Source: Escherichia phage buks. Taken from it: DNA of 40,308 nucleotides. A model generated the notes under the pieces. It did no database searches. It was not told where the DNA came from and saw only the letters and a list, made by a program, of their open reading frames with translations. This document shows positions 7,739 through 34,002 of this stretch, one piece after another. The translations under genes were made by a program, and so were the position numbers. Every line of letters starts with the position of its first letter. Positions within the stretch are counted from its first letter, which is position 1. The stretch is taken from the sequence record MN850616.1. One strand, 5' to 3'.

Positions 7739-7767
7739 TTGCATAACCGTTAATAGTGTTCTATTAT
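7739..7767 (+). promoter_or_regulatory. Sigma70-like promoter TTGCAT-N17-TATTAT with overlapping palindromic operator-like site
   Basis: -35 at 7739-7744, -10 at 7762-7767; 16-bp site TAATAGTGTTCTATTA at 7751-7766; conserved CAACTAAACA 9 nt downstream of the -10. Confidence 0.55.
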
Positions 7768-7801
7768 CTCTACGTCAACTAAACAATATGAGGTTAAGAA
7801 C

Positions 7802-7981
7802 ATGAGCGTTTTTATCGGTATTATCGCGTTTATCTATTTCATTCCGTTCCTGGTAGCCTTGCTACGTAATCATAAAGCCAAATTAGGAATATTCGTATGC
7901 AATCTTTTACTGGGGTGGATTCTTCTGCCGTGGGTAGGCGCTCTCATCTGGGCCTGTAACTCTAATGTTAATGGTAAATAA
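7802..7981 (+). CDS. Small membrane peptide, Imm-like superinfection immunity family (59 aa)
   Basis: Hand-translated ORF missing from the track (<60 aa): MSVFIGIIAFIYFIPFLVALLRNHKAKLGIFVCNLLLGWILLPWVGALIWACNSNVNGK. GAGGT RBS 8 nt upstream; two hydrophobic helices with the ...GW..L.W.GALIWA pattern I recall for superinfection-immunity peptides. First gene after promoter 7739-7767. Confidence 0.55.
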   Translation: MSVFIGIIAFIYFIPFLVALLRNHKAKLGIFVCNLLLGWILLPWVGALIWACNSNVNGK

Positions 7982-8043
7982 TCTGGCTAAATTAAACTTA
8001 CATTATTAGAATCAGATTTGTCTTAAACAATCAGGAAATAAGC

Positions 8044-9198
8044 ATGGTCACTCGCAAAATAACAGATGAACAGTTGCAACAAGAGCTAAATGCTGGCCTC
8101 GGCCCTACTGAAATAGCCAAAAAGTATAATATGTCCCGCCGTAATGTTCAGCTTCGTTCCGCGCGCCTGGCAAAGAAAGGAGTTGGCCACGGGCGCGACG
8201 TAAGCCACCTTGTGCCAGATGGGTATAAGATTAAGGGTACGTCGTCACTGGTAGATGAGTTCGGTAACACGAAACTTCAGTGGGTTAAGACTGACGCTGA
8301 CGCCGAGCGCCAGGTCGAGCTGATGCGAGCCGTTGTGGATGAGATGAAAAAAGATTTACCTAAATATAAACCTGTCACTTTGCCCAAAAATGGCACAGAT
8401 GACGACTTATTAAATCTCTACACAATAACGGACCATCACATTGGATCGCTGGCGTGTCGAGAAGAAGGCGGGGATGATTACGATACCACAATCGCGGAAT
8501 CTCTCGCAGTTGACTGGTTCAACAGTGCGGTTTGTATGAGCCCGCAGAGCGGCGAATGTATCATTAACTTCTTAGGGGACCAAATGCACTACGATGGCAT
8601 GAAGGCAATGACCCCCATGAGCGGTCATATTCTTTCTGCTGATAGTCGCCTGTTTAAAATGATACGTACCGCCATTAAGGTTATCAAGCTGGCTGTCTCG
8701 CTGTGCTTGCGAAAACACAAGAAGGTTAAACTTCTTATCTGTGAGGGTAACCACGACCTTAGTTCTTCCCTGTGGCTCCGAGAGATGTTCTACGAGGTGT
8801 ATACAAATGAGCCTCGCGTCGAGGTTAACCGGGAGGTGTCGCCGTATTATGCGTATAAGTTCGGGGATTGTATGATTTCAGCACATCACGGGCATTGTTC
8901 TAACTTTACTAAAGTAGAGCAGTCTATAATAGGTAAGTATCGGGAGATGTACGGGCAGTGTAAGTTCACATATGTCCATACGGGTCACCTCCACCACCGG
9001 GCGGTTAAAGAGACTAATCTTCTAATTGTTGAGCAACACCAGACATTAGCGGCTAAAGATGAGTATTCTAGTAAAGGCGGTTATTATTCAGGTAGAAGCG
9101 CAAATGTGATTACATACCATAAACGTTACGGGGAGGTGTCCCGCATAAGTATACCTGTTGAAATGCTGCGAGACATAAACCCCAAATCAACATACTAA
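8044..9198 (+). CDS. HTH domain fused to calcineurin-like metallophosphoesterase
   Basis: 384 aa; N-terminal HTH-like segment (GPTEIAKKYNMSRRNVQLRSARL); metallophosphatase motifs in order: TITDHHIG, GDQMHYDG, EGNHD, SAHHGH, HTGHLHH. Confidence 0.7.
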   Translation: MVTRKITDEQLQQELNAGLGPTEIAKKYNMSRRNVQLRSARLAKKGVGHGRDVSHLVPDGYKIKGTSSLVDEFGNTKLQWVKTDADAERQVELMRAVVDEMKKDLPKYKPVTLPKNGTDDDLLNLYTITDHHIGSLACREEGGDDYDTTIAESLAVDWFNSAVCMSPQSGECIINFLGDQMHYDGMKAMTPMSGHILSADSRLFKMIRTAIKVIKLAVSLCLRKHKKVKLLICEGNHDLSSSLWLREMFYEVYTNEPRVEVNREVSPYYAYKFGDCMISAHHGHCSNFTKVEQSIIGKYREMYGQCKFTYVHTGHLHHRAVKETNLLIVEQHQTLAAKDEYSSKGGYYSGRSANVITYHKRYGEVSRISIPVEMLRDINPKSTY

Positions 9199-9213
9199 AA
9201 TGTAGGTGAAAGG

Positions 9214-9714
9214 ATGGATTGGAGTGAGGTTTTTAGCTACAAAAACGGCGTCCTATACTGGAAAGTCAAATCATGTCGCCGTAACGATGTGAATGTAGGG
9301 GATGTGGCCGGGAGTTTGTGTAAAAACGGCTATTGGTATGTCATGTTCGGTAACCGTAAGTTTAAAAGGTCTAGGGTGGTGTATGAGATGTTCTCAGGTA
9401 AGATTCCAAAAGGATTTGTCATAGACCACACCAACCATGATACCTGTGACGACAGAATTGAAAACCTGTCATGCAAATCCAGAAGGGACAACATGGTTAA
9501 CGTGAAAAGGCGCAAAGATAATACCTCAGGAGTTACGGGTGTGGCGCGGAAAGGAAAAGCTAAGTGGAGAGCTTATGCCGTTGTCAACGGTAAGCAGATT
9601 AGTAAAACATTTGACAGAATAGAGGACGCTTTCGCGGAAAGAATTTACATGTCTGTGGCTAATAGGTTCCACATAAATCATGGACTGACAACATTCAACA
9701 ACGGCTATAAATAG
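9214..9714 (+). CDS. Free-standing HNH homing endonuclease with AP2-type DNA-binding domain
   Basis: 166 aa; HNH-type motif (VIDHTNHDTCDDRIENL) followed by AP2-like segment (SGVTGVARKGKAKWRAYAVVNGKQISKTF); AGGTGA RBS. Confidence 0.8.
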   Translation: MDWSEVFSYKNGVLYWKVKSCRRNDVNVGDVAGSLCKNGYWYVMFGNRKFKRSRVVYEMFSGKIPKGFVIDHTNHDTCDDRIENLSCKSRRDNMVNVKRRKDNTSGVTGVARKGKAKWRAYAVVNGKQISKTFDRIEDAFAERIYMSVANRFHINHGLTTFNNGYK

Positions 9715-9723
9715 GGCATAAAG

Positions 9724-9954
9724 ATGACTAACAAATACAATCGAACAATGACAAATACTGACGGAGATAGCATTACCTGTGATGTGTACGACGTTCTGAG
9801 GGCATTTGATATCCGCGACCCGGCACTACAGCATGCGTTGAAGAAACTGTTGTGTATGGGATTGCGGGGGCACAAGGACACAGGAACCGACTTAGCAGAA
9901 GCAATTGAAAGTCTGGAGAAGTTACGGAAATACCGTAGTAATATTGATGAGTGA
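9724..9954 (+). CDS. Hypothetical protein
   Basis: 76 aa ORF followed by a rho-independent terminator; no recognisable motif. Confidence 0.45.
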   Translation: MTNKYNRTMTNTDGDSITCDVYDVLRAFDIRDPALQHALKKLLCMGLRGHKDTGTDLAEAIESLEKLRKYRSNIDE

Positions 9955-9955
9955 G

Positions 9956-9982
9956 AAAAAGGCCCCTTTCGGGGCTTTTTTT
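9956..9982 (+). terminator. Rho-independent terminator
   Basis: Stem GGCCCC / GGGGC with TTTC loop followed by a 7-nt T-run, right after the 9724-9954 gene. Confidence 0.7.
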
Positions 9983-10064
9983 ATCGTCACGATAAAGAAT
10001 CTGATTTGAACGATAAGAATGTTCGAAGTTAAATATATCTACACCAACAAGAGGGGATGAAACC

Positions 10065-10736
10065 ATGAACGAATTAATGAATGTTAGTGAAGCACAAACC
10101 ATGTCCAGCCGTGAGATTGCGGAATTGACGGGGAAAGAACACGACAACGTACGACGCGATATATTAAAAATGGCACAGGAACTTTCCCTCAATTTTGAGG
10201 AAAAGGTTTTGCCTTCAAACGGTGGCAGACCAAGTAAGGTATTTCTCTTAGACAAAGAAAATACATTAATCCTGATTTCAGGGTACAGCATCAAAATGCG
10301 CGCTGCCATCATCCGCCGTTGGCAGGAACTGGAGTCACAAGCGAGCAAACCATCCTTACCGGTGCCCAAGACAATGGGGGAGGCTTTAAGGTTGGCTGCG
10401 GACTTGTGGGAGGAGAAAGAACGCCTTGCGCTTGAGAACAAGGAAATGGCACCAAAAGCTGATGTCTACGACCGCATCATCGACAGAAATAACTTGTACA
10501 ACGCGACGCAGGTTGCCCAGAAGTTCGGTCAATCTGCCGTGTGGATGAATAAACAACTTGAACAATTTGGCGTATACAATCGCTCCGTAAAACGCGGTCG
10601 TGTCTTCCAGCAATGGTTCATCGATAAGGGTTACGGCATTATGCGTGAAACAGAAACTGGTCATTCACAGGCTATGTTCTTCGCTGAAGGTGAAATGTGG
10701 ATTATCGGTAAGTTAACGGCAGAAGGTTTGATTTAA
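10065..10736 (+). CDS. Rha-family phage regulatory protein / antirepressor-like (Rha N-domain plus KilAC-like C-domain)
   Basis: 223 aa; N-terminal ...MSSREIAELTGKEHDNVRRDILKM... resembles the Rha regulatory domain; AGAGGGGA RBS; followed by a bidirectional terminator. Confidence 0.65.
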   Translation: MNELMNVSEAQTMSSREIAELTGKEHDNVRRDILKMAQELSLNFEEKVLPSNGGRPSKVFLLDKENTLILISGYSIKMRAAIIRRWQELESQASKPSLPVPKTMGEALRLAADLWEEKERLALENKEMAPKADVYDRIIDRNNLYNATQVAQKFGQSAVWMNKQLEQFGVYNRSVKRGRVFQQWFIDKGYGIMRETETGHSQAMFFAEGEMWIIGKLTAEGLI

Positions 10737-10764
10737 AACTAAGGCCCCTTTCGGGGCCTTTTTC
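10737..10764. terminator. Bidirectional rho-independent terminator between convergent genes
   Basis: AAGGCCCC-TTTC-GGGGCCTT hairpin flanked by A-run upstream and T-run downstream; sits between the Rha-like gene (+) and the major tail gene (-). Confidence 0.7.
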
Positions 10765-11934
10765 TTAGGCGTACTTAATGCGCTGGATAACAATTGAAGA
10801 CTGGAACTGGTTACCGGTTGCCTGTCCCTCAAGAGAAAGGGTGACAGATTCGGGACCACCGATTTCCGGAGTTGCTGATGTCAACGAAGCGCGTTTTAAG
10901 GTGAAACTCATGGCACCGTCTGGGCCGTTCAGAACAGAAGATACCTCCATTTGCGTTTCGTTCAGGAATTTATTCAATAACGTCATGTCGTACAGCTTAC
11001 CCGCCAACGAGAAGGTGTTAGCCGCGCGGCCACGTTCGACAAATGCCACGCTATTATTCCCTAACTCGAACTGTGCGGACGCGCTGTTGTCGTTAGTAAT
11101 GGTGAACGTGTCGATAAGTTTAAGCGGAGCGGCGCCGTCATAGGCGGATACGTCAACCGATGCAAACGGACGGGCGCTAAAATTGGTCGTGAAATCTGAA
11201 CCACTCGGCAGTGCTTGTAGGATTTCCTGATTAAGACCAATGAACGGGAATGAGCCTGTAACCATCGCGTTAACGGCTTGTTCGATGGTGAACCCTGTAA
11301 ATTCAACACCACGAGTTATGATGTACGAATCAGGATTTCCGCATTTACCTTTCAACCATGTCAGGATTGAATAGGTTTTACACAAGTTACCGGTTTCAAG
11401 TTTATCTGCGATACGCAAATCGGCTTGGGCGTCTGATTCAGCGGTAAGGGTGTGCTGGATGCCCGCTCCGGTTATAACTGTAGCTGTGGCAGCCGTGACC
11501 ATGAACGCTTTGTTGTTATTTCCGGATAAACCGTCGAATTGCACTAGGTCGCCTACCTCAACGCCATCTGTTACAAAGCTGCCGGTGGTGCGTGTGAAAG
11601 TTTTCGCCACCGGGTCTACGGTAACGCTGATTCCAGATTTAGTGGAACCTGCTACCCAGGAACTGGTCATTGCGCCAGCAAGCAACTCATCCTGGCTTTC
11701 CGCGCTAAGTTCAATAGCATATTCACCAGTTACCTGACGGTTACCGGTGCGGATAGATGATGTTTCACGGCTGCCGTCCAGTTCATTAGAGATGAGGGCG
11801 TCGCGGGTTACGGCGGGAATACCCCCAGTGTTGCGCAGTGGTTGCCATACCGGGTTAGCGGGTGTTACCCCCGGCGTCGTCTCAAGAACGTAAAACTGCG
11901 CGGCCATCGCGCCCTTATATGGTTGTAACGCCAT
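10765..11934 (-). CDS. Major tail protein
   Basis: 389 aa ORF that is the last structural gene before the chaperone/tape-measure block (separated only by the plus-strand island); call by synteny. Confidence 0.55.
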   Translation of the reverse strand: MALQPYKGAMAAQFYVLETTPGVTPANPVWQPLRNTGGIPAVTRDALISNELDGSRETSSIRTGNRQVTGEYAIELSAESQDELLAGAMTSSWVAGSTKSGISVTVDPVAKTFTRTTGSFVTDGVEVGDLVQFDGLSGNNNKAFMVTAATATVITGAGIQHTLTAESDAQADLRIADKLETGNLCKTYSILTWLKGKCGNPDSYIITRGVEFTGFTIEQAVNAMVTGSFPFIGLNQEILQALPSGSDFTTNFSARPFASVDVSAYDGAAPLKLIDTFTITNDNSASAQFELGNNSVAFVERGRAANTFSLAGKLYDMTLLNKFLNETQMEVSSVLNGPDGAMSFTLKRASLTSATPEIGGPESVTLSLEGQATGNQFQSSIVIQRIKYA

Positions 11935-12353
11935 TATCTAATCCTCGCTGTAAATGCTATGAAATTAATTGAGAGAGGCCTCTTCGCCCATCCATTCTCA
12001 ACAATAAGAGGACCGAGGCTTACTGATTGTACCTCAGCACAGATTTCGTTACGACTAAAACAGTTACCGGCGGCGAAGGCGGCGTTTAGCTTATCAGCTA
12101 ATCGGTTAATAGGAGCGCTACCCAAGGCCGACCCGACGTTAATGTCTACCTGATAAACACCCGCCCGTTGTTCAGTCCAGAACAAGTCAGCTTGTTCAGT
12201 ATCTGACAACAGCATATAACTCGCAAGATATGGGGTATCTGTAGACGTAGGTGCGTCTATGTTCTCCAGTGCGACCTTTATCCCGTTGTTCGTGCCAAAT
12301 GCTACCAGTGCCGTGTCGAATGCTTTTGTTAAATCCTCGAAATATGTTGCCAT
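11934..12353 (-). CDS. Virion structural protein (tail completion / head-tail joining region)
   Basis: 139 aa; TAATG stop/start overlaps with both neighbours, part of the coupled structural operon. Confidence 0.4.
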   Translation of the reverse strand: MATYFEDLTKAFDTALVAFGTNNGIKVALENIDAPTSTDTPYLASYMLLSDTEQADLFWTEQRAGVYQVDINVGSALGSAPINRLADKLNAAFAAGNCFSRNEICAEVQSVSLGPLIVENGWAKRPLSINFIAFTARIR

Positions 12354-12748
12354 TATTTCACCTTAGAGGCTTCTTCATTTAATAATTGCTGGAAACGCGA
12401 TACATTAACTCTAACGAAGCCTTGTGGCGCTTGCTGCGACCAACCATACTCCAGGCGCTGCGCATACGGTAAATTGTTAGTTAGAGTAAACGTGTGCCAG
12501 TCAGCGGCATTTAGCACGAAATTAGCGGCATTACTGGTCGCCGTGGTGCCAGCTTTGTCGGTAGCGTCCGTAGTTCCGTCGGCGGGAGTACCGCCGGACG
12601 CCATCCAGTTCATACGAAAGCGACCTGTATCTACAGGACTCGCTTTGATAATCGCAGAAAACAACTTGATAGATACCTGACGAATTACCTTTTCAGGATT
12701 CTTCTTAGCCTTTTCCACGAACTTGGACACATCAAGAGCAAAACTCAT
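12353..12748 (-). CDS. Virion structural protein (head-tail joining region)
   Basis: 131 aa; ATGA overlap with upstream gene; synteny only. Confidence 0.4.
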   Translation of the reverse strand: MSFALDVSKFVEKAKKNPEKVIRQVSIKLFSAIIKASPVDTGRFRMNWMASGGTPADGTTDATDKAGTTATSNAANFVLNAADWHTFTLTNNLPYAQRLEYGWSQQAPQGFVRVNVSRFQQLLNEEASKVK

Positions 12749-13104
12749 TTTCTCACCTGGATAAAGTATGCTACTACGTCATCGTTAACCATCTTCTTCT
12801 CTACGGCGACCACAGACCACTGTTCACCATTGAATTGTACTTTATCATCCATCTTAGGAATTACGCTGTAATCGGCCTTAACCACCATATCCCCTGCCTG
12901 AATGGTGGTTCCGTTTACCAGACCAGCATTAACCGGTACAGGAACGGATTTAAGAGGGACCGTCGTGTCCGCCCCCCAAACGTACTCACCTAAAACAGGA
13001 TCCCATGTTTTTTGCCCTTTCTGAATCAAAGTTACTGTGCTGCCGTATTTTGTTAGCAGGTGTGTCCCTACACCTTGCATCCTTTTACTGAAAGCGGTGC
13101 TCAT
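12745..13104 (-). CDS. Virion structural protein (head-tail joining region)
   Basis: Start re-set to ATG 13102-13104 (MSTAFSKRMQ...), which overlaps the upstream stop as TAATG; the track start at 13158 would overlap the upstream gene by 55 nt. Confidence 0.4.
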   Translation of the reverse strand: MSTAFSKRMQGVGTHLLTKYGSTVTLIQKGQKTWDPVLGEYVWGADTTVPLKSVPVPVNAGLVNGTTIQAGDMVVKADYSVIPKMDDKVQFNGEQWSVVAVEKKMVNDDVVAYFIQVRK

Positions 13105-13709
13105 TACGCAGCCTCCAGTCTCGAGATAACCAATAAGGCTGACGGCGCTACACCCCACGAAGTAACCGTTGCCGCTTGCAGGTATAATCCGCCGAAGTTA
13201 GAACCGGCGGCATCGCGCATAATCTCTACCGCGAAGTTTTGCCCGGCGACGGCGTTAACTACCACACGCGATTCAATAGGAATCGTGGCGTCTGCGCTTG
13301 CCAGTTTAGTAGCGGCTGGTGAACCGAATTGGGCGCCGCCGAGCAGAACACGCGTCAGGAGAATAGATGTCCCGCTCGCCCCGGTGCGCCCAGCCAGCAA
13401 TTTAACACGGATAGCGTAGTTACCAGCGGCGTTGAACGTAACTACCCCGGATGCATTAATCATCACAGGGTCAGCGCTTGTTTTCTGCGCCCCACCAAAG
13501 GATACGGTTAACGCTGTACCAGTGGTAGTTGGCGCCTGGATATCTGTAGACGCCGCGCGAAGTACTTCTACTTCCTTAACGCCGTAAAGCATAGAATCCG
13601 CGATTTGCGTGGTAACTTCGCGCAACTTTTCCGGTGTAATTAGCCCGGACTGGTTATCAGGGAAGTTTGCCCCAATTAAGGCGAATATTTCCGATTTAGT
13701 CTTAGCCAT
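13104..13709 (-). CDS. Virion structural protein (function not assignable)
   Basis: 201 aa Ala/Gly/Thr-rich ORF in the head-tail region; ATG 13707-13709. Confidence 0.4.
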   Translation of the reverse strand: MAKTKSEIFALIGANFPDNQSGLITPEKLREVTTQIADSMLYGVKEVEVLRAASTDIQAPTTTGTALTVSFGGAQKTSADPVMINASGVVTFNAAGNYAIRVKLLAGRTGASGTSILLTRVLLGGAQFGSPAATKLASADATIPIESRVVVNAVAGQNFAVEIMRDAAGSNFGGLYLQAATVTSWGVAPSALLVISRLEAA

Positions 13710-13711
13710 GA

Positions 13712-14221
13712 TTAACCCCTGAAAACATTAAAGGAGTAGGCATTATTGCTACCACATAAGAGAGGGCGTAACGCATCATCGGCTGCTGTGATGCTTACTG
13801 TGCTGCCCGAGTAGCCATTTTTAAAGTAGGACACGGTTACCGCACCCTCAACTCGTTCGGTCTGAACCTCTCGCCCGTCTGTAGACCCCCGAACGTCGGT
13901 ACCCGCACCATACTCTACGGCGGCCATTACCTGAGCCTGAACAATTAACGGAGGGATAACGTTAGATGGCTGAGGGAACCCGTGTAGGGTAATACCGGTT
14001 CTCGGGAACGCCAGCGCCTGGTTCGCCGATACACGGCGACCGCACATCTGCGATTCGAAAAGCCCAACATATACAGCACCATTTCTCAGCGCAGCCTCAG
14101 CCTTAACGTCGTCTTCTGGAAGTTCAAGGCCGTATTTAGCCGCTAGCGCACGTCCGTCTCCCAGGCTGACGTAGGAATCCGCATTAGGTAAGCCTTGTCC
14201 TGTTTCCACGATAAGCGGCAT
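13712..14221 (-). CDS. Putative head-tail connector/adaptor protein
   Basis: 169 aa; N-terminus MPLIVETGQGLPNADSYVSLGDGRALAAKYG resembles gp6-like head-tail connector openings from memory; weak. Confidence 0.35.
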   Translation of the reverse strand: MPLIVETGQGLPNADSYVSLGDGRALAAKYGLELPEDDVKAEAALRNGAVYVGLFESQMCGRRVSANQALAFPRTGITLHGFPQPSNVIPPLIVQAQVMAAVEYGAGTDVRGSTDGREVQTERVEGAVTVSYFKNGYSGSTVSITAADDALRPLLCGSNNAYSFNVFRG

Positions 14222-14224
14222 AAA

Positions 14225-14413
14225 TTATTCCTCTACGCTTTTGCGGCGACGACGCTGCTTAGGTTCCCCACCACCGTTGTAATGCGGTTCTTCTGCGACC
14301 GGTTGGGTCTCTATTAATGCACCCGGGTTCGCTTCTTCGCGCATCGGGTTTAACTGCCCGTTGACCTCGACCACACCTTTGTATTGTTCCCTGACTACGT
14401 AATTATCTGCCAT
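14225..14413 (-). CDS. Small basic protein (62 aa)
   Basis: ATG 14411-14413; lysine/arginine-rich C-terminus; between the Ig-like gene and connector-like gene. Confidence 0.4.
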   Translation of the reverse strand: MADNYVVREQYKGVVEVNGQLNPMREEANPGALIETQPVAEEPHYNGGGEPKQRRRRKSVEE

Positions 14414-14449
14414 GTCTAATCCTTAAAGAGGCCCGAAGGCCGCGTGTAT

Positions 14450-14800: not shown

Positions 14801-14811
14801 TTTTATCCTCC

Positions 14812-15096: not shown

Positions 15097-15112
15097 TATG
15101 TAGTCTCCGTAT

Positions 15113-15142: not shown

Positions 15143-15156
15143 AGTATACCCTACGA

Positions 15157-17697: not shown

Positions 17698-17777
17698 ATA
17701 AAAAATAATAAAAGTCTATTTTTGGAATAAAGTATTCCTGAATTTACATTGGTAAGGGATAACTGGAATAATGGTGT

Positions 17778-25221: not shown

Positions 25222-25842
<621 letters not shown>

Positions 25843-26926: not shown

Positions 26927-26931
26927 ATAAG

Positions 26932-27303
26932 TTACCTGAACGTATAAAGTCGAATAGATGGCTTGTGCGGGATATCGGAATACCCACGTTTACGCCACAA
27001 CTTATACAGTTTAACAGCCATATGCGCCCGGGCCTGGCTACTGAACTCACCGAGGTTTACCACTTTCTTGCTGTCGTAAGAGTGCGCACGCCACAGACCT
27101 TTGCCTACGCAATACTTAGGCTGATGGACCCCAGGTATACGCGGATACACATCCGGCATCTCATTAGCTGGCTTTACTCGCGGCTTAGGTTTACGTTTAC
27201 GCTTGTCTTCTTCCTTAGGACGAGTAACCTTCTTTGTTACCGCCGATGAAGGCGGTGCAAGGTTAATACCGGCGTGTTTCAGGATATCGGTTGCGAGGCT
27301 CAT
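26932..27303 (-). CDS. Basic protein with AP2-like DNA-binding segment
   Basis: 123 aa; Lys/Arg/Pro-rich N-region then ...IPGVHQPKYCVGKGLWRAHSYDSKKVVNLGEFSSQARAHMAVKLY... resembling AP2-type domains; weak. Confidence 0.35.
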   Translation of the reverse strand: MSLATDILKHAGINLAPPSSAVTKKVTRPKEEDKRKRKPKPRVKPANEMPDVYPRIPGVHQPKYCVGKGLWRAHSYDSKKVVNLGEFSSQARAHMAVKLYKLWRKRGYSDIPHKPSIRLYTFR

Positions 27304-27305
27304 AA

Positions 27306-27509
27306 TTATTTCTCCTGTTTACCAAGTCGCTTAGGCGAGCAGATAGCGCGTACTTCTGAATCATTTGGCTTGTCGCCCTGAAACAGGAAGTGCGCATTCT
27401 CGTTGGCGCGTGCCGCTGACCGGCACGCCTCTAATGTGTAAAACGTTTCCGATGCCGCGAGTTGCATCTGGCCTGCGGACAGTACCCAGATAAATAAGAT
27501 ACTGGTCAT
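27306..27509 (-). CDS. Small secreted/periplasmic protein (67 aa)
   Basis: Start re-set to ATG 27507-27509 (MTSILFIWVLSAGQMQLAAS... signal-peptide-like), which forms an ATGA overlap with the upstream stop. Confidence 0.4.
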   Translation of the reverse strand: MTSILFIWVLSAGQMQLAASETFYTLEACRSAARANENAHFLFQGDKPNDSEVRAICSPKRLGKQEK

Positions 27510-27787
27510 TTCTTTAACCCGCATATTCTGCACATCATCGACGCACTTGTATCGTAAAAGTACCAATCGTGCTCGCACCCCTGAGCATCTTCTTTACGGC
27601 AACCAGATTGCTCCGTAATTGAATCAACAAAGGCCATAAGTTCCTGGTAGGCTAAATCCCGCTCCAGCGACGCCGCTACATACTTAGCATTGCCGCCCCG
27701 CACTACAGCACGGACCATATCTGCCGAAGTATCAGCTACCGCGTCAACAAGTACCATCAGATGGGTTGCCTGTTCTTTAGTAATCAT
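27506..27787 (-). CDS. Cys-rich hypothetical protein
   Basis: 93 aa; C-terminal GCRKEDAQGCEHDW...MMCRICG cysteine cluster; AGGAGA RBS. Confidence 0.45.
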   Translation of the reverse strand: MITKEQATHLMVLVDAVADTSADMVRAVVRGGNAKYVAASLERDLAYQELMAFVDSITEQSGCRKEDAQGCEHDWYFYDTSASMMCRICGLKK

Positions 27788-27846
27788 TGTTGCATCTCCT
27801 GCAATAGTTACGTTGGTTGTTGCATTTAGTGAAATAGAAAAATATT

Positions 27847-27879
27847 AACAAAAATGGTACGCTGCTACTCAGCAGCGTA
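27847..27879 (-). terminator. Rho-independent terminator after gene 27897-28196
   Basis: Perfect 9-bp stem TACGCTGCT / AGCAGCGTA with ACTC loop, followed on the minus strand by CCAUUUUUGUU. Confidence 0.55.
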
Positions 27880-27896
27880 AGTCACTCAGTAAAATC

Positions 27897-28196
27897 CTAA
27901 ACTACTGTTACAAGCTTCCGGCGGCTCCGGCAACAGCGCCCAGGTGCGGACCCGGGGCCACTAAAACCCTGGCCATAAACGGCAACCTCCTTTAAGACCC
28001 CGAGAATCACCGGCGCAGACTCTTTAGAATCTTTTGCCGTGTAGTTGTTTCCGATTGGCTCGAAAGTATCTCGTCTAACCCACCCATGAATCCTGTGTCC
28101 CTCAGGTAATAGGATAATCCTGGTCGGATTTTTGCTATAAACGAAATAGCAATTCCCGCTTATCTTATGCCGTAGCAACTGGCCCCTTTTAAACAT
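27897..28196 (-). CDS. Hypothetical early protein
   Basis: 99 aa; first gene after the minus-strand promoter/operator at 28227-28257; GAGGA RBS; followed by a terminator. Confidence 0.45.
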   Translation of the reverse strand: MFKRGQLLRHKISGNCYFVYSKNPTRIILLPEGHRIHGWVRRDTFEPIGNNYTAKDSKESAPVILGVLKEVAVYGQGFSGPGSAPGRCCRSRRKLVTVV

Positions 28197-28228
28197 GGTT
28201 CATCCTCTTTTCTCGTTAACCTGCAATA

Positions 28229-28257
28229 ATAGTACTCTATTATATTTGGTTACGCAA
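28229..28257 (-). promoter_or_regulatory. Candidate minus-strand promoter TTGCGT-N17-TACTAT with overlapping operator-like site
   Basis: -35 is the reverse complement of 28252-28257, -10 of 28229-28234; palindromic site TAATAGTACTCTATTA at 28227-28242 supplies the -10; ~25-nt leader to gene 27897-28196. Confidence 0.45.
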
Positions 28258-28727
28258 GTGCCTTTTTATTCTTTTCTCTCGTCCCTCGTCAGGTAAGCGC
28301 TTGCCGTGAGGCAAGTGCGTTAATCCCTGAGAAGCAGACTAAGAATCTTTCGGCATACAAGAGAACAGTTACGTTTGCCGTTGTTCAGTGTTGTGCCTTT
28401 ATTCTTATTATCTGGTAACTAAAGGGCAGGCCTTAAGCCTGCCCACTAATCGTTACATTTTACGGTTGCGAATCTACGGCACATCAAGGAAATCAGATAC
28501 TTAAGAGATATGCTGCCGATGAGAATATAGCTCGCCCAAGGCAGTTCAGATACTAAGGAAGGAAGTTACTGAGTTTTAAGTTTGCGGGTTTCAGTAAGCC
28601 TTAACGCGTTTCCGCTTAGGGCGGAACCGCTAAGCTCTCACAAGGTGAAACAGAAACTTAAGTAACTTGAAGTTACAAGAGACAACTTACACGAAAAAAA
28701 CAAGAATGTCAATAGGTGTGTTTATAG

Positions 28728-28756
28728 TTGATTTCCCATTATGCCGTGGGTATACT
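28728..28756 (+). promoter_or_regulatory. Candidate promoter TTGATT-N17-TATACT for the plus-strand replication operon
   Basis: -35 at 28728-28733, -10 at 28751-28756, followed by GGAGG RBS and ATG 28788. Confidence 0.5.
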
Positions 28757-28787
28757 TGCTTTACTAACTGAGATGGAGGGTTTGATA

Positions 28788-28958
28788 ATGACACAGAATG
28801 AAGTAGCTAAGCTTATTGGGGTGACCCGCCGTACGCTGAATAACTGGCTAAGAGACGGCAAGTTCCCGGATTGTTGTGTCCGGATTATGGGCCGCCGGAT
28901 GCCAGGTACGTTTGACCGGGAGAAAGTGGAAGCGTGGATTAGGGAGAATGTAAAGTGA
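28788..28958 (+). CDS. Small helix-turn-helix DNA-binding protein
   Basis: Start set to ATG 28788-28790 with GGAGG RBS 8 nt upstream (MTQNEVAKLIGVTRRTLNNWLRDGKFP...), not the TTG at 28728; classic HTH segment. Confidence 0.55.
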   Translation: MTQNEVAKLIGVTRRTLNNWLRDGKFPDCCVRIMGRRMPGTFDREKVEAWIRENVK

Positions 28959-29188
28959 CCGATTTCCAGAAAAGAGTATTCAGGGCTGTAGCCGCTCTTA
29001 CATTTAAAAAGGGGTCTTGTAGTGTCCTTGACTTGCGCCGCACTTATTTTCAGTACTATAGTTCCTCTCTCATCGAGAACACGTTGAAGGTTCTGGTTAG
29101 AGACGGAGCAGTTAAAAGTAAGGCCGGAAAATATTCGGCAGTAGCTGAAGTTAAATGCTCTCAGGCGACGCCCGAAGACCTTGAATAA
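28955..29188 (+). CDS. Hypothetical protein
   Basis: 77 aa; GTG start overlapping upstream stop (GTGA) with AGGGAG RBS. Confidence 0.45.
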   Translation: MTDFQKRVFRAVAALTFKKGSCSVLDLRRTYFQYYSSSLIENTLKVLVRDGAVKSKAGKYSAVAEVKCSQATPEDLE

Positions 29189-29244
29189 AAGAAAAGCCCC
29201 AACGCGCGAACGTCAGGGCTTTAAACACTACAAAGGAAAAGCAC

Positions 29245-31431
29245 ATGTCAACAGGTAATCTAGCATACTCATGGTCGCGTAGCAATCGCCGTGAGGAACG
29301 CGCTGACATTAACGTTTACACCACGACTTCCGGCACCTGGGATGAGTTCGTTGAACTTATGCAGCCGCTTAAACGTTCGCGCCGGAACCCCAAGACAGAC
29401 CCCGGATATATCACCGCCGCGTGTACCGCCACGGTAAGCTCTACAGGTAAAGAAGCCGCCGAAGGTATGTTTTATCGCTGCAATGCGTCCGTAACGTCTT
29501 CGTCCCTGGCTTACGCCGACGTGGATAGTGCGACTCCGGAAGAGTTCGCCACTGATTGCGAGATGGTGCGTGAGTCGCGTTTCGCAATGATGCTCTACAC
29601 CACGGCATCCCACACCGAAGAAGCGCCACGCTATCGCATCGTTATGCCGGTGCGCACTCCGGTAACCGGCGGCGACATCATCCGCATCCGGTACGGTCTG
29701 CTGACGCATTTCCTTAAAGGCCGTGACGTAGATAGCGCGGGCTTCACCCTGTCGCAACCGATGTACCGCCCGCCAGTGGGAAGCCAGGTCATCGTGTCTG
29801 AAAGTAGCCGCATGATTACGGCAAGCAAGCTTATGGAGGGGGTGCCTGAAATTAACGTTACGGGTGCTTCCGATTATAAGGTGCCAGAGGGTGAGCAATC
29901 TGAGTTAACCGACCTGTTCGAAGAGTTCGCTTTCGAGTTCGGCGGCCGTATGACTGACCGTGGCCTGCAAATGCCGGCGACGCCAGAACATGCCGCCCAA
30001 TACTCGACGGGGGAACCGAAACAGGACGACTTCCTTTTCTGTTGGCCCCGCGATGGCTTCGAGCGCCCCAACGTAACCATGTACCATGACACCGACCTGG
30101 TGGCCACGGGTGGGATGACACCCGGCGGACGGGATATGTGGGTCTACGCTTGCACCGCTACCGGTTTGCCGTTTGACCGTGTAGAGGTAGCGCTTGGCTG
30201 GGCGCCCGGCGTTACTTGCGACGAAGAAGACCTGGCCGACGAAGAACCCCCGGCGCCGCAAGCGGATTTCATCGTCGAAGGATATATGCCGTCTAACTGC
30301 ATATGGGATATCGTCGGGGAATCCGGGACGTATAAATCGTTCTACACACTCGGCATGATGTATATCAGTGCTGCCGGGTACCGGTTCGCGGGGGCGGACA
30401 CCCGTAAAGCCCATCATTTCTATATTGATGGTGAGGGTGGGGAGTTCACGCACACCCGTATCGCTGCGTTGGCCGCTAAATACGGCGATGAAGGTATGCG
30501 GTATATGCATGTGCTTGACGCTGGTGAGTTTGCGGATACGAAGAAACTGGTTCGTAAAATGCGCCAGCTAGCGGGCAGTGAACCTGTCGGGATGGTTGCT
30601 TTCGATACGCTTAACCAGACCTTCGGAAACTGGATAGACAAGTTCAATGAGAACTCCGCGGGCCAGGACGGGATGGGGCGGGTAGTGGCGATGCTCAAAG
30701 AAGTACGCGACGGTACTAAAGGTGCTGTAGGTGTTGTCCACCACACCCCGAAAGGTGGGAGTAAGGCGCGCGGAAGTGGGGCGCTGTACGCCGGTGTCGA
30801 CGTCGAGCTTACGCTTGTCCGGGCGACCGAGAAACAAATAAACGTTGCACATACCAAGAACAAAAACGGTATGCAGCAGAAAACAATAGGCATGGTGCTT
30901 GAACCAGTACAGTTTCGCGAGGCCCCGCCGCCGAAAGAGTTCCAGGCTGTAGAATTCGTTGGGGGTGAGGGATACGGGGAAATCGTTAACCTAGACCTGC
31001 CGGAACCGCATAAAGCTCTTGTACTCATGCCGTGGGGCTTCCAACCGTTCGAAACGGACGAGGAAAAAGAGCGCAACGAAGGACTGGACGGTAAAGGTAA
31101 AGATTCCGTAAAGGATACAGTTAAACGGTCTAAAGATGCTTCCGCACGAGAATCGGTTATGTCTGCTCTCGAGGATTTACAGCAAGCCGATGATACCGGA
31201 CGAGGTTTCACACAACGGCAAATAGTCGCCAGGGCTGGGGACCACAGCATAACAAACTTGGTGCTCGAGAAGATGCTACGAGAGGGTGAATTGATGCTTG
31301 GTTGCGATGAGAATGGTGAAGTTGTAACGAATACTTACAGGTTGCCGACGGGTATAGATGACCGTAAGCGGCCAAAGAACAGGTATGAACCTAACGACAA
31401 CATAAAGACAACAGAAGGGGATTTAGAGTAA
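29245..31431 (+). CDS. Replication protein: primase-polymerase-like N-domain fused to RecA-like P-loop ATPase
   Basis: 728 aa; N-region with acidic motif AYADVDSATPEE; central Walker A-like GESGTYKSF and downstream ...VGVVHHTPKGG...; C-terminal winged-helix-like tail. Domain names are from recollection. Confidence 0.6.
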   Translation: MSTGNLAYSWSRSNRREERADINVYTTTSGTWDEFVELMQPLKRSRRNPKTDPGYITAACTATVSSTGKEAAEGMFYRCNASVTSSSLAYADVDSATPEEFATDCEMVRESRFAMMLYTTASHTEEAPRYRIVMPVRTPVTGGDIIRIRYGLLTHFLKGRDVDSAGFTLSQPMYRPPVGSQVIVSESSRMITASKLMEGVPEINVTGASDYKVPEGEQSELTDLFEEFAFEFGGRMTDRGLQMPATPEHAAQYSTGEPKQDDFLFCWPRDGFERPNVTMYHDTDLVATGGMTPGGRDMWVYACTATGLPFDRVEVALGWAPGVTCDEEDLADEEPPAPQADFIVEGYMPSNCIWDIVGESGTYKSFYTLGMMYISAAGYRFAGADTRKAHHFYIDGEGGEFTHTRIAALAAKYGDEGMRYMHVLDAGEFADTKKLVRKMRQLAGSEPVGMVAFDTLNQTFGNWIDKFNENSAGQDGMGRVVAMLKEVRDGTKGAVGVVHHTPKGGSKARGSGALYAGVDVELTLVRATEKQINVAHTKNKNGMQQKTIGMVLEPVQFREAPPPKEFQAVEFVGGEGYGEIVNLDLPEPHKALVLMPWGFQPFETDEEKERNEGLDGKGKDSVKDTVKRSKDASARESVMSALEDLQQADDTGRGFTQRQIVARAGDHSITNLVLEKMLREGELMLGCDENGEVVTNTYRLPTGIDDRKRPKNRYEPNDNIKTTEGDLE

Positions 31432-31454
31432 AAAGAAAGGGGCCATCAGGCCCC
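31431..31454 (-). terminator. Terminator hairpin between convergent primase-like and XRE genes
   Basis: Stem GGGGCC / GGCCCC (31439-31454) with ATCA loop; on the minus strand followed by UUUCUUUU; the XRE stop codon lies in the loop. Confidence 0.5.
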
Positions 31455-31664
31455 TGTATCACCAAAGCTTAACCATCGAGGGTCAACACCGAGAGCATCG
31501 GCAATGTGGAAGATTTTAAAACAGTCTACCTTACACACCCGACCGGTTGCCAGATGGGTAATAAGGCTTTGGGATACGCCAGCTTTGAAAGCAAGCTCAG
31601 TTTGACCCATGCCGATTTCTTTGCGGCGGCGCTCTATGCGGGCGCCTAATTCGGATTGCTGCAT
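31446..31664 (-). CDS. XRE-family (Cro-like) helix-turn-helix transcriptional regulator
   Basis: 72 aa; ...RRRKEIGMGQTELAFKAGVSQSLITHLATGR...IADALGVDPRWL... is a textbook Cro/CI-type HTH; AAGGAG RBS; transcribed divergently from the replication operon. Confidence 0.75.
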   Translation of the reverse strand: MQQSELGARIERRRKEIGMGQTELAFKAGVSQSLITHLATGRVCKVDCFKIFHIADALGVDPRWLSFGDTGA

Positions 31665-31693
31665 ATGTTTACTCCTTAGTTAGATATGTAGTA

Positions 31694-31722
31694 ATAGTAC
31701 AGTAATAAAATACACGGTGCAA
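31694..31722 (-). promoter_or_regulatory. Candidate promoter of the XRE/Cro-like gene, TTGCAC-N17-TACTAT, with overlapping degenerate operator
   Basis: -35 is the reverse complement of 31717-31722, -10 of 31694-31699; site TAATAGTACAGTAATA at 31692-31707 overlaps the -10. Confidence 0.5.
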
Positions 31723-31737
31723 TTTACGAAAAAGTGC

Positions 31738-31766
31738 TTGCATAAATAATAGAGTACGATTATAGT
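31738..31766 (+). promoter_or_regulatory. Sigma70-like promoter TTGCAT-N17-TATAGT with overlapping operator-like site
   Basis: -35 at 31738-31743, -10 at 31761-31766; site TAATAGAGTACGATTA at 31747-31762; CAACTAAACA 10 nt downstream of the -10, as at promoter 7739-7767. Confidence 0.55.
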
Positions 31767-31797
31767 TCTTATCACCAACTAAACAGGAGAATGCACA

Positions 31798-32334
31798 ATG
31801 TTAGAACAATTTATTAAATTATTTGAACGTTTCGTAGTTGCTCACGAACTGATTGCTGCGAACAGCGCGAAACAGACTGTGTACCAACTTAAAAGTGATA
31901 TCACCGCAGTAAACAAAGAGTTGATAGAAAAAGCGGTAGAAATGGCAGCACCGGATGAGCGCCGGGCTAGTTCTGCGGTGTGCAAAGCGTTAGAAAAAGA
32001 ACTGCCGGTAGAAGGTGAAAGCATTGTTGACACTAAACCGGCGGAAGAAGAGAAACCAAAACGCAAGACTCGTAAAGCTAAAGTAGAGGAACCCGCACCG
32101 GAACCGGAAGAAGAGAAAGAAGAAATTGATTATAAGTCTCTTCGCGACCAGATTCAGGCTATTGATGATGCGATTAACGAAGGCCCCAGCGATGCCGCGT
32201 GCGATGATTCTGATGAACTGCTGGAAGAGTTTACCGGTAAGAAAATGAAGATTGCCGCGATTAAAGACGAAGACCTGGCCGAGTACCTGGAACGCCTCAC
32301 GGCAATCAAGAACAAGTATTTCGAAGAAGAATAA
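31798..32334 (+). CDS. Acidic hypothetical protein
   Basis: 178 aa, Glu/Lys-rich central region; first gene after promoter 31738-31766. Confidence 0.5.
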   Translation: MLEQFIKLFERFVVAHELIAANSAKQTVYQLKSDITAVNKELIEKAVEMAAPDERRASSAVCKALEKELPVEGESIVDTKPAEEEKPKRKTRKAKVEEPAPEPEEEKEEIDYKSLRDQIQAIDDAINEGPSDAACDDSDELLEEFTGKKMKIAAIKDEDLAEYLERLTAIKNKYFEEE

Positions 32335-32376
32335 TCACCCGGCGGCCCTTCGGGCCACTTTTCAGGAGGATGAATA

Positions 32377-33804
32377 ATGATTCTAAAAGAACGTGGCGGA
32401 AATAACGATGTGCACGCCCTACTGTCACCGTCAGGAGCTAAAAAGTGGCTGGCGTGCAGTGCATCACTGGCCTGTGAGAAAGATATCCCCAACACGTCCT
32501 GTAAAGCTGCGGTGTTAGGAACGGCGATGCACACACTTGCCGAGATTAATCTTAACCAGTACATCAAAGGCACTGCGTTGCCGTTAGAGCGAGATGTAGG
32601 GGCTTATGTGTTGGAAGAAGGTAAAGGCGCGGTTAAAGCGCTAATTAAGCCGATGAAAGGTGCGGTGCTGGTTACAGATGACATGGTAGAGCAGGTGCGA
32701 AAGTACACTGACTACTGCAAAGCGATTATAGACGTATCTACTTACGCCAAACTGGAAATGCGCGTAAATCTTACTGAGGTGTTGCACCCGGGTTATGAAG
32801 GCGTGGAGACGTTCGGAACCGCCGACTTTGTGGCCGTTCAGGAACTGGTGAACACCGAAGAGCATATGCTTATTATTGGTGACCTTAAAACAGGACGGCA
32901 TCGTGTCGAAGCGAAAGAAAACAAACAGCTTATGCTTTACGCTCTCGGTGTTTATCGCAGACTCAAGAGACGTTATAACATAACCGTTGTTCGTCTGGTC
33001 ATCTTCCAGCCATACGCTGGCGGTGCGTCGGAGTGGGACATCTCAGTCGAAGGCCTTGAACTGTTCGCTAAGTTTGCGCAGAAACGCGCGGTAGCTGCGC
33101 TTGACGCGTATCGACGTGGTAAGAAGAACCTGAAAGCGTCGGACTTTAAGCCGTCGGTTGATGGGTGCCAGTGGTGCCGGTTCTCAGAACAGTGCCAGGC
33201 AAGGACTAGAGCATCCAATGCCGTTCTGGTCAAAGAACTGGAGAACGATGCAGATGTATATCGGCGTGCCGTAGAACGGGTGGCTAAGTTCTGCAACGAG
33301 GCGGACTATATGAGCGTTTGGGAGGATGTTCAACCTAGCGATATCCTTAAGTTGCTGCCCGACGAGACAGATTTACCTAAGAAGCCAGTTAGAGAGGATG
33401 ACTTTGCGTTAGAACTTACCACTAAACAACTAGTGGCTGAGTATGAGAAGTTGCCGTTTTTGCGTCAGCACATCGACAAAGTAGAAAAAGCGATGGCGGC
33501 CGCGCTTCATTCCGGTAAAAAAGTTCCCGGTTACAAACTGGTTGAGGGCCGTCCTGGTAATCGCACGTGGAAAGATGAAGACGCTGTAAATAAATTCAGG
33601 GAAAACCATGTAAACGGCTATCTGCTGGATAAGACTGTTCCGGTATCACCGACCGAAGCGGAAAAGATCATCGGCAAGGAAGACCCCGAACTTTGGGCTG
33701 AGCTATCTAAACTCGTAACTCGTAAGCCGGGTGTGCCATGTGTTGCATCGGCGGATGACAGGCGACCTGATTGGAAAAATATTACGGAGGAGGATTTGGA
33801 ATGA
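32377..33804 (+). CDS. PD-(D/E)XK-type nuclease (DUF2800-like, Cas4/RecB-like exonuclease)
   Basis: 475 aa; N-terminus ...HALLSPSGAKKWLACSASLACE... as I recall for DUF2800-family phage nucleases; AGGAGG RBS. Confidence 0.65.
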   Translation: MILKERGGNNDVHALLSPSGAKKWLACSASLACEKDIPNTSCKAAVLGTAMHTLAEINLNQYIKGTALPLERDVGAYVLEEGKGAVKALIKPMKGAVLVTDDMVEQVRKYTDYCKAIIDVSTYAKLEMRVNLTEVLHPGYEGVETFGTADFVAVQELVNTEEHMLIIGDLKTGRHRVEAKENKQLMLYALGVYRRLKRRYNITVVRLVIFQPYAGGASEWDISVEGLELFAKFAQKRAVAALDAYRRGKKNLKASDFKPSVDGCQWCRFSEQCQARTRASNAVLVKELENDADVYRRAVERVAKFCNEADYMSVWEDVQPSDILKLLPDETDLPKKPVREDDFALELTTKQLVAEYEKLPFLRQHIDKVEKAMAAALHSGKKVPGYKLVEGRPGNRTWKDEDAVNKFRENHVNGYLLDKTVPVSPTEAEKIIGKEDPELWAELSKLVTRKPGVPCVASADDRRPDWKNITEEDLE

Positions 33805-33977
33805 AGAAATTGACGTGGTGGCTGCTTGCCACCCCGTTAATACCGGTGGCTTTTATATACTATTTAATGAGGGCGTTAGAGAAAGTCGGTGAGACGTCGG
33901 GAATTTTAGCGGACAGGATGCTTGACTCAAAAATGAGGATGAAATATTTAGCATGGCGTAATCGAAAATTTGGTTGA
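33801..33977 (+). CDS. Small membrane protein (58 aa)
   Basis: Start set to ATG 33801-33803 (MKKLTWWLLATPLIPVAFIYYLMRAL...) with GGAGGAGG RBS and ATGA overlap with the nuclease stop; the track start is TTG at 33771. Confidence 0.45.
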   Translation: MKKLTWWLLATPLIPVAFIYYLMRALEKVGETSGILADRMLDSKMRMKYLAWRNRKFG

Positions 33978-34002
33978 CAAGTTAATAGTACTCTATTATA
34001 GT
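33974..34002 (+). promoter_or_regulatory. Sigma70-like promoter TTGACA-N17-TATAGT with overlapping operator-like site
   Basis: Consensus -35 at 33974-33979, -10 at 33997-34002; site TAATAGTACTCTATTA at 33983-33998; followed by hairpin CCGGGCAGCTTCCCGG and the SSB-like gene. Confidence 0.6.

Follow-up and report, generated by a model that had tools for sequence, protein, structure and literature searches.

A dispersed dyad over promoters of Escherichia phage buks, the probable operator of a small Cro-like repressor

Escherichia phage buks (sequence record MN850616.1; its 40,308 nucleotides are the window analyzed here) carries, scattered along its genome and lying over its promoters, copies of a 16-bp palindrome, TAATAG-N4-CTATTA. 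Which protein, if any, reads this dyad, and what happens to transcription when it binds? The original prediction, made from the sequence alone, took the dyad for the operator of a candidate regulon of at least five promoters and pointed to a Cro-like gene at 31446-31664 as the source of the regulator. Taken as a whole, the reading that we consider probable is that the dyad is the operator of a dimeric helix-turn-helix (HTH) repressor, most probably the product of that gene, gp58, which would act by repression and, through negative autoregulation, on its own promoter as well.

The gene map used here comprises 61 genes transferred from the record of Salmonella phage blauehaus (NC_073173.1; Jerseyvirus, Guernseyvirinae), with which the window shares 100% identity over the 7.5 kb aligned by megablast, and relative to which it is reverse-complemented and rotated. 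The transferred genes translate cleanly, bar the truncated tailspike gene. Coding sequence makes up 92.5% of the window (37.4 kb), leaving 2,921 nt of AT-richer intergenic DNA (42% GC), and a search of the window against Rfam found nothing. The relatives compared were the Jerseyviruses PVP-SE2 and Ent1 (Jerseyvirus loci L002, which is PVP-SE2, and L003), the Kagunavirus Bas75 (L004), an SE1-like phage (L005) and Serratia phage Otaku (L006, covered over 30.7 of its 39.9 kb), together with a wider set of 49 IMG/VR loci of Jerseyvirus or Kagunavirus type that yielded 289 distinct site contexts.

The motif lies well beyond chance, as had been claimed from its twelve fixed positions. Four exact copies occur in the window where 100 dinucleotide shuffles predict 0.00, and nine sites occur at up to two mismatches where 1.66 are expected and the largest shuffle value is 5. 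The intergenic DNA by itself holds 3, 5 and 8 sites at zero, one and two mismatches, against means of 0.001, 0.022 and 0.289 in 1000 simulations. The motif is far from equally frequent in coding sequence: at up to two mismatches, eight sites are intergenic (2.9 kb, 7% of the window) and one lies in the 37.4 kb of coding DNA, and the chance that at least six of the seven clear sites would be intergenic is 9.5e-7. Scored with a weight matrix, these seven reach 18.6-28.7 bits, two marginal matches at 17706 and 27832 reach 14.0 and 10.8 bits, and noise extends to 9.5 bits; the two marginal matches, each with two mismatches, are about the number predicted by chance. The motif also emerges from an unbiased count of all 4096 hexamer dyads with spacers of 0-10 and at most one mismatch, in which TAATAG with a spacer of 4 shares the top position with its own frame-shifted form, ATAATA with a spacer of 6, at six copies each; none of 10 shuffles contained any dyad in more than three copies. 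The same count at up to two mismatches was noisy, with random GC-rich dyads reaching 13, and was discarded. Within the window sites the dyad centre is non-random (W-R-Y-W) and the flanks prefer a...t, which suggests an 18-bp site. We consider it very probable that the dyad is a protein-binding operator.

The candidate operators and the predicted promoters that they overlap are as follows, with the two marginal matches last.

7751-7766, no strand assigned: O-7751, TAATAGTGTTCTATTA, exact; symmetry centre of two overlapping divergent promoters.
TTGCAT (7739-7744)-17-TATTAT (7762-7767), plus strand: O-7751 promoter heading the imm/phosphoesterase/HNH island.
TTGACG (7778-7773)-17-TATTAA (7755-7750), minus strand: O-7751 promoter heading gp39, the tape-measure protein gene and tail genes.
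25241-25256, minus strand: O-25241, TAATAGTTGACTAGTA in gene orientation, one mismatch; contains the -35 TTGACT.
TTGACT-17-TATATT (25250 to 25222), minus strand: O-25241 promoter heading gp08-gp15, the terminase genes and the portal gene.
28227-28242, no strand assigned: O-28227, TAATAGTACTCTATTA, exact.
TTGCGT (28257-28252)-17-TACTAT (28234-28229), minus strand: O-28227 promoter heading gp01 and possibly reaching the lysis genes.
TTAACC-16-TATTAT (28216-28243), plus strand: possible O-28227 promoter towards the gp61 operon.
31692-31707, minus strand: O-31692, putative weak auto-operator, TAATAGTACAGTAATA, two mismatches, one half degenerate; overlaps the gp58 -10.
TTGCAC (31722-31717)-17-TACTAT (31699-31694), minus strand: gp58 promoter, with O-31692 starting 9 nt after the -35 and the -10 within the dyad.
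31747-31762, plus strand: O-31747, TAATAGAGTACGATTA, one mismatch; fills the promoter spacer.
TTGCAT (31738-31743)-17-TATAGT (31761-31766), plus strand: O-31747 promoter heading gp57 (acidic), a PD-(D/E)XK nuclease gene and gp55.
33983-33998, plus strand: O-33983, TAATAGTACTCTATTA, exact; in the spacer of TTGACA-17-TATAGT (33974-34002), which heads gp54 (DUF2815, resembling single-stranded DNA-binding protein, SSB) and DNA polymerase I.
37600-37615, plus strand: O-37600, TAATAGAACACTATTA, exact; in the spacer of TTGATA-17-TATATT (37591-37619), which heads gp49 and helicase gp48.
17706-17721, no strand assigned: marginal site, TAATAAAAGTCTATTT, two mismatches, 14.0 bits, intergenic; overlaps a phiSITE promoter annotation in PVP-SE2.
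27832-27847, no strand assigned: marginal site, AAATAGAAAAATATTA, two mismatches, 10.8 bits, intergenic, just past the gp01 terminator.

The six sites listed originally all proved correct in coordinates and sequence, and the expectation that more copies might exist was borne out by a fourth exact one at 37600-37615. That site also limits the statement that all copies are intergenic: it holds for the six, while O-37600 overlaps the last codons of the VRR-NUC gene gp50, immediately upstream of gp49. The five units first listed likewise stand as members of the candidate regulon, which was drawn too narrowly, since it also takes in the helicase unit, the gp58 gene and, probably, the tail operon. 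Of the marginal matches, 17706 may be a relic or a chance match, and 27832 is probably a chance match or a decayed site.

All seven clear sites overlap the -35, the spacer or the -10 of a predicted sigma70-like promoter, as originally proposed, and thus occupy the position that steric occlusion of RNA polymerase would call for; their centres fall between about -33 and -15. Read towards the downstream gene, the promoters at all seven have 17-bp spacers. The depositors of PVP-SE2 independently annotated phiSITE promoters orthologous to those at 25241, 31747, 33983 and 37600 and to the minus-strand promoter at 7751. The register between dyad and promoter takes four forms, with the dyad starting 3, 6 or 9 nt after the -35 or containing it. 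At 31747, 33983 and 37600 it starts 3 nt after the -35 and supplies the first two bases of the -10; at 7751 it starts 6 nt after the plus-strand -35 and its right half-site forms the -10; at 28227 it starts 9 nt after the -35, with the -10 inside the dyad. Across the wider set, a hexamer matching TTGACA in at least five of six positions ends exactly 3 nt upstream of the dyad in 121 of the 289 contexts, compared with about 0.5% of random positions. Good promoters without a dyad are also present: P-gp61 (TTGATT-17-TATACT), P-amidase (TTGCAT-18-TATAAT) and P-gp34. Since some promoters lack the dyad and its register varies among the others, it is a separate element placed on some promoters and not part of a general promoter design.

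Several sites have features of their own. O-31747 also overlaps a possible second minus-strand promoter of gp58 (GTGATA-18-TATTAT), and the inverted repeat around O-28227 extends to 16-nt arms (28217-28232 / 28237-28252). The sequence of O-25241, TACTAGTCAACTATTA, resembles the E. coli TrpR operator (TACTAGTTAACTAGTA), and it might be a TrpR-like host site. At 7751 (7739-7778) and 28227 (28216-28257) two divergent promoters overlap completely, and each takes its -10 from one half-site; RNA polymerase could then transcribe in only one of the two directions at any moment, and one bound dimer would close both promoters.

Comparison of orthologous promoters in related phages, which the original prediction had proposed as a check, found the dyad kept in Jerseyvirus, Kagunavirus and Otaku. 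PVP-SE2 and Ent1 have the sites at orthologous positions with the central four bases changed, and O-7751 persists in L002 and L003, where its N4 differs. The E. coli phage Bas75 carries ten sites of the form (T/G)AATAG-N4-CTATT(A/C) whose centres all differ, and Otaku has three, at orthologous promoters. The deviant half-site of O-25241, ACTAGT(A), is kept in both Jerseyvirus (L003 40890) and Kagunavirus (L004 41599), so the deviation is conserved and does not reflect decay. At the SSB/polymerase promoter, Jerseyvirus, Kagunavirus and Otaku retain the -35 TTGACA and both half-sites while the linker drifts (agt, tct, cct, gct, cat), as does N4 (TACT, TTAG, AATA, TAGA, TTGG, CAAG and others); we read this footprint from an unconstrained listing and set aside column entropies from a half-site-constrained regular expression as partly circular. 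The 49 loci contain 39 different N4 sequences across all sites. When the search was seeded only on the inner ATAG-N4-CTAT, the two unseeded outer positions were 97-98% A and T in Jerseyvirus, and the outermost position in Kagunavirus was T or G. By sequence comparison, conserved half-sites beside a freely varying linker and centre are the pattern expected of a protein-binding dyad.

This pattern also bears on whether any trans-acting factor is needed. The dyad might be a pair of back-to-back -10-like hexamers (TATTAt on each strand), or part of a promoter cassette copied along with accessory genes (morons). At 7751 and 28227 each half-site can indeed act as the -10 of divergent promoters, the promoter regions are similar beyond the dyad, in TTGCATAA and the leader CAACTAAACA, and Kagunavirus contains three near-identical promoter-dyad cassettes. 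At 31747, 33983 and 37600, however, the -10 (TATAGT or TATATT) starts at dyad position 15, which leaves the upstream half-site in the spacer. These three sites have no divergent gene, and the exact dyads at 33983 and 37600 are kept although genes flank one side only, where a divergent -10 would be of no use. Sigma70 spacers need no specific sequence, yet the spacer half-site persists in three genera while linker and N4 drift; strong promoters do without the dyad, and the -35 register varies. Copying of cassettes would explain how the motif spread but not why the half-sites alone are selectively retained, and we regard a purely intrinsic promoter element as very unlikely.

The near-identical cassettes of Bas75, TTGCACACCCCAATA-TAATAGnnTACTATTC, lie at 5137, 14260 and 37040 and each precede small accessory genes. 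PVP-SE2 carries an extra exact operator (3837) before its gp11, a gene for which tblastn gave no match to the compared window proteins of blauehaus. It appears that a promoter-operator cassette moves together with such accessory genes.

If the dyad is an operator, which protein binds it? The gene singled out by the original prediction is the following.

31446-31664, minus strand: gp58, 72 aa, a 434-Cro-like HTH protein and candidate operator-binding repressor.

The gene is equipped with a Shine-Dalgarno sequence of its own (AAGGAG) and with an intrinsic terminator (31455-31438). In Pfam its product matches HTH_31 with 31.3 bits (gathering threshold 27) and HTH_3 with 30.6 bits (threshold 23). 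A phmmer search of the PDB aligns it over its full length with 434 Cro (E=1.4e-8, residues 6-69 to 4-65), and it is 47.6% identical to phage 434 cro by tblastn. An AlphaFold2 model, with a predicted local distance difference test score of 86.3, has five helices (5-17, 21-28, 32-39, 48-58 and 62-67), and its best PDB match is 2CRO (TM 0.79/0.87, root-mean-square deviation 1.5 A); the Cro/OR1 complex 3CRO also matches. The modeled 72 residues form a compact single five-helix domain without a C-terminal peptidase or oligomerisation domain. Judged from sequence and predicted fold together, gp58 is a member of the 434-Cro/XRE family. A wide protein search with gp58 returned four close homologs and no longer, CI-like relative.

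The arrangement of sites around gp58 speaks for a link between the gene and the dyad. In the divergent region between gp57 and gp58, the gp57 promoter bears a near-perfect operator and the gp58 -10 a half-degenerate one. Kagunavirus keeps this strong/weak pair, its weak site (GAATAGTACCATATTA) being half-degenerate and in the same place; the distance between the two sites is 55 bp in Jerseyvirus and 44 bp in Kagunavirus. The pair is also found in locus L086, among other neighbouring genes and beside a homolog that is 79% identical to gp58 and has an identical recognition helix. Moreover, of the DNA-binding candidates gp58 alone occurs in all genomes that carry the motif. Its homology to 434 Cro, its own weak operator and this co-occurrence support the original choice of regulator, and we hold with good confidence that gp58 is the protein bound to the dyad.

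The position of the Cro-like gene differs among these phages. In SE1-like phages (L005 6781-7002) and in Otaku (L006 10517-10750) it heads the helicase-primase operon; in Jerseyvirus and Kagunavirus it lies inverted at the 3' end of that operon, and gp61 (HTH_17) takes the first position. The '8 kDa' protein of the virulent Salmonella phage MB78, known from an old sequence with apparent frameshift errors, is 82% identical to gp58, and MB78 is, on this similarity, probably a Jersey-type phage.

Other proteins might own the operator instead: gp61, the NinH-like gp11 and gp13, the Rha/ANT protein gp34, a host factor or a prophage repressor. The case for gp61 (56 aa) is that it is 80% identical between Jerseyvirus and Kagunavirus, which have the operator in common, against just 49% for gp58, and that neither gp61 nor the exact dyad was found in SE1. 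HTH_17/excisionase-type proteins, however, typically bind as monomers to asymmetric or direct-repeat sites, and no homolog of gp61 was found in the covered part of the Otaku sequence, where the dyad persists at orthologous promoters. Nor was gp34 found in Kagunavirus, or NinH-like genes in the same part of Otaku. A host factor would not account for phages of shared hosts having different dyads according to their Cro type, and would leave the conserved weak site at the gp58 promoter unexplained. As for prophage repressors, the Rac-prophage 'dicA' repressor is 39% identical to gp58, and the Kagunavirus isolates Bas74-76 (which include Bas75) were isolated, and plate, only on E. coli K-12 without all nine cryptic prophages (PMC11990801). 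Weighing these points, we think it unlikely that a protein other than gp58 is the principal reader of the dyad.

The relation between the type of Cro-like protein and the type of dyad bears directly on the assignment to gp58. Core dyad density is 3.3-4.5 per 10 kb in loci with Jersey- or Kaguna-type recognition helices and 0.15-0.46 in those with 434- or SE1-type helices. As a positive control, a blind dyad count recovers ACAA-N6-TTGT, which is the known 434 operator, in 434-type loci only. In five pooled SE1-type loci the top dyad is ATATTA-N6-TAATAT, different from that of the window. This SE1-like dyad is loose, TA(T/A)TA-N6-TA(A/T)TA; in L005 by itself it is just as frequent as the shuffle maximum, and the loci must be pooled for it to emerge, so we treat a type-specific SE1 operator as suggestive. 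Aligned in a common 14-bp frame, the operators of the three types begin with ACAA, AATA and ATTA, each with A as its first base. The first glutamine of the recognition helix (Q32 of gp58) is invariant in a five-sequence alignment that includes 434 Cro, and is replaced by R in two distant homologs of a 16-sequence alignment. In 434 the recognition-helix glutamine contacts the first adenine of the operator.

How might a gp58 dimer act on these promoters? We propose that one dimer would occupy each operator of the form (a)TAATAG-WRYW-CTATTA(t), whose half-site centres, 10 bp apart, would lie on one face of the DNA helix. Since each operator lies on the -35, on the 17-bp spacer or on the -10, bound gp58 would exclude RNA polymerase, and these host-sigma70 promoters would be blocked sterically. 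Exclusion is the simplest mechanism, since core elements are always covered and the spacers already have the optimal 17 bp. The replication and recombination targets would be the gp57/nuclease unit, the SSB-like protein/DNA polymerase unit and the gp49/helicase unit. Further targets would be the small-gene/terminase unit and the gp01 unit, the latter possibly extending to the lysis genes; the operator at 7751 would serve the imm accessory island and, probably, the tail-operon promoter that diverges from it. The weak, half-degenerate operator on the gp58 -10 would let gp58 limit its own synthesis only at high concentration, and the proximal promoter of the gp61-gp60-helicase/primase operon would stay unregulated. 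In a Cro-style negative feedback, phage transcription would then fall as gp58 and genome copy number rise. That the effect of binding is repression we consider likely; that gp58 serves as a throttle in time is a suggestion for which we see the scales as evenly balanced.

Alternatively, gp58 might have a dual role, with activation at some promoters as for the controller (C) proteins of restriction-modification systems or for lambda CI at PRM. In the structural comparison of the gp58 model, C.AhdI and C.BclI come out among the best matches, two unequal sites lie upstream of gp58, the dyad occurs in several -35 registers, and operators are also found on operons of late function. Yet whatever its register, the dyad lies over the -35, the spacer or the -10, its centre is not at the activator-typical -41.5 or -61.5, and the optimal 17-bp spacers leave no need for MerR-like realignment. 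The gp58-proximal sites, separated by the distances given above, are moreover not adjacent as the OL and OR of a C-box are. Activation by gp58 is therefore improbable in our judgment.

The spacer position of several sites also recalls the loading of a processive antiterminator of Q or AlpA type, which would read through terminators inside operons. The Q- and AlpA-binding elements do lie between the -35 and -10 of phage and prophage promoters (PMC9371919); gp61 belongs to the HTH_17/AlpA-related clan, and the operons contain terminator-like hairpins. The AlpA element, however, is an asymmetric 6-bp sequence bound by one molecule in a fixed register with a sigma-dependent pause (PMC9371919), in contrast to a 16-bp dyad in four registers. 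At 56 aa gp61 offers no room for an RNA-exit-channel module, given that in AlpA the DNA-contact residues alone lie at 126-142 (PMC9371919), and a gp61 homolog was not found in the 30.7 kb of Otaku. With a dyad in place of a short asymmetric element, a register that is not fixed and no large antiterminator, we rejected a Q/AlpA-type loading site, which we regard as barely credible here.

Set beside known regulators, gp58 most resembles 434 Cro, of which it is a full-length homolog (72 versus 71 aa, 42-48% identity) with the same five-helix fold. Both have dyad targets in which about 10 bp separate the half-site centres and the middle is weakly constrained, and in both the sites lie on promoters that include the regulator's own. 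The operators differ, (T)AATAG-N4-CTATT(A) in the window and ACAA-N6-TTGT in 434 (OR1-3, OL1-3), as does their deployment: the window phage, considered virulent, has single operators on at least seven promoters spread along its 40-kb genome, and by the blauehaus annotation and the site map it lacks a partner CI, an integrase and tandem three-site OR/OL arrays. The divergent neighbour of gp58, gp57, is an acidic protein without a Pfam match, and the two sites between the genes, 55 bp apart, do not form a triplet; the gp58 locus is thus not part of a lambdoid immunity region. Neither CI nor an integrase has been reported in Jerseyvirus GF04 (PMC13216507).

The parallel with lambda Cro is one of role: a proposed small, early, dimeric repressor that damps early promoters (PL, PR and PRM in lambda) and itself through graded operators. 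Lambda Cro has a winged alpha/beta Cro fold different from that of gp58, and its 17-bp operators are confined to two operator regions within the lysis-lysogeny switch. The C proteins C.AhdI and C.BclI, structurally near the gp58 model, are likewise small XRE dimers with palindromic operators on their own promoter and concentration-dependent autoregulation via sites of unequal strength. Their two sites, however, are adjacent at one promoter, where the first dimer activates, whereas gp58-type sites are dispersed, single and centred on core promoters.

Several observations weigh against gp58 as a simple early repressor that binds this dyad. Operators also lie on promoters of late functions (terminase, probably tail and possibly lysis), which a simple 'early shut-off' does not explain; since the regulated units include packaging and probably tail genes, the regulon would be near genome-wide and not simply 'early'. 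Homologs of gp57 bear the inherited name '13.88 kDa late protein', which presumably derives from work on MB78, while the records found attribute it to phage MA12. Between Jerseyvirus (SQSLITH) and Kagunavirus (SQGAINQ), four of the seven recognition-helix positions differ while the operators are almost identical, and the SE1 helix (TQSAISH) is nearer to that of Jerseyvirus, yet its dyad is different and looser. Helix differences with a shared operator mean that helix and operator do not covary cleanly, and clean covariation of the recognition helix with the half-site was not obtained. Related genomes do not count as independent samples, so that totals over many loci exaggerate how many separate observations were made, and the coverage of Otaku limits the profile that can be drawn there. 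Finally, the searchable literature yielded no binding, transcription-start or expression data for these phages.

With nearly every transcription unit behind a gp58 operator, high gp58 could hold the genome silenced, possibly as a self-replicating episomal carrier or pseudolysogenic state. Silencing of this kind would spare two units, the gp61-gp60-helicase/primase operon at its proximal promoter and gp58, which would regulate itself. The distantly related Serratia phage eta is said to form 'unstable lysogens' in which no repressor was found, which could be likened to such a state. Through their shared operator, Jerseyvirus and Kagunavirus would also be cross-immune via gp58 and open to prophage repressors of matching specificity, which might explain the Kagunavirus isolates that plate only on prophage-cured K-12. 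We consider a silenced state of this kind rather unlikely.

Three features near the operators deserve a record of their own. Just downstream of the operator-bearing SSB/polymerase promoter, the 5' untranslated region of gp54 contains a hairpin, CCGGGCAGCTTCCCGG, at 34012-34030. Its sequence is kept across four lineages (L002, L004, L005 and L006); RNAalifold gave five pairs, with no compensatory changes or covariation among them, and it could be an mRNA stabiliser or a translational operator. Between gp01 and gp61 lies a 591-bp non-coding region (28197-28787) with TCAGATACTTAAGA-like direct repeats at 28493, 28546 and 28650 and inverted repeats at 28563-28583 / 28648-28668. The ends of the blauehaus GenBank record map within it, to 28486/28487, and it is a candidate origin or packaging region. 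Lastly gp57 (31798-32334), the first gene behind O-31747, encodes 178 aa that are highly acidic and rich in Glu and Lys; it belongs to PHROG 3127 (unknown function) and is present in all Guernseyvirinae examined, at 35-91% identity.

A Cro-type repressor with dyad operators on promoters is a known arrangement; what is unusual here is that it would extend over the whole genome and that it is met with in phages of a group considered strictly lytic. The literature searched contained no description of the motif or of any operator in Guernseyvirinae. Jerseyvirus and Kagunavirus are among the phages most often isolated and have been proposed for biocontrol and therapy against Salmonella and E. coli, while their gene regulation is essentially undescribed; an operator, a named candidate repressor and a map of seven promoters provide a first testable regulatory model for the subfamily. 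The model accounts for the varied labels that annotators have given gp58 ('repressor', 'DicA' and 'Cro'), labels that can make lifestyle-prediction tools flag these phages as temperate. It would also offer a compact, orthogonal repressor/operator pair for phage engineering, in a subfamily whose genus Kagunavirus is regarded as an attractive model for synthetic biology (PMC11990801). The model predicts that gp58 supplied in trans would block infection across both genera, and it invites one to ask whether 'virulent' phages can be silenced by the repressors of resident prophages acting on operators of this kind.

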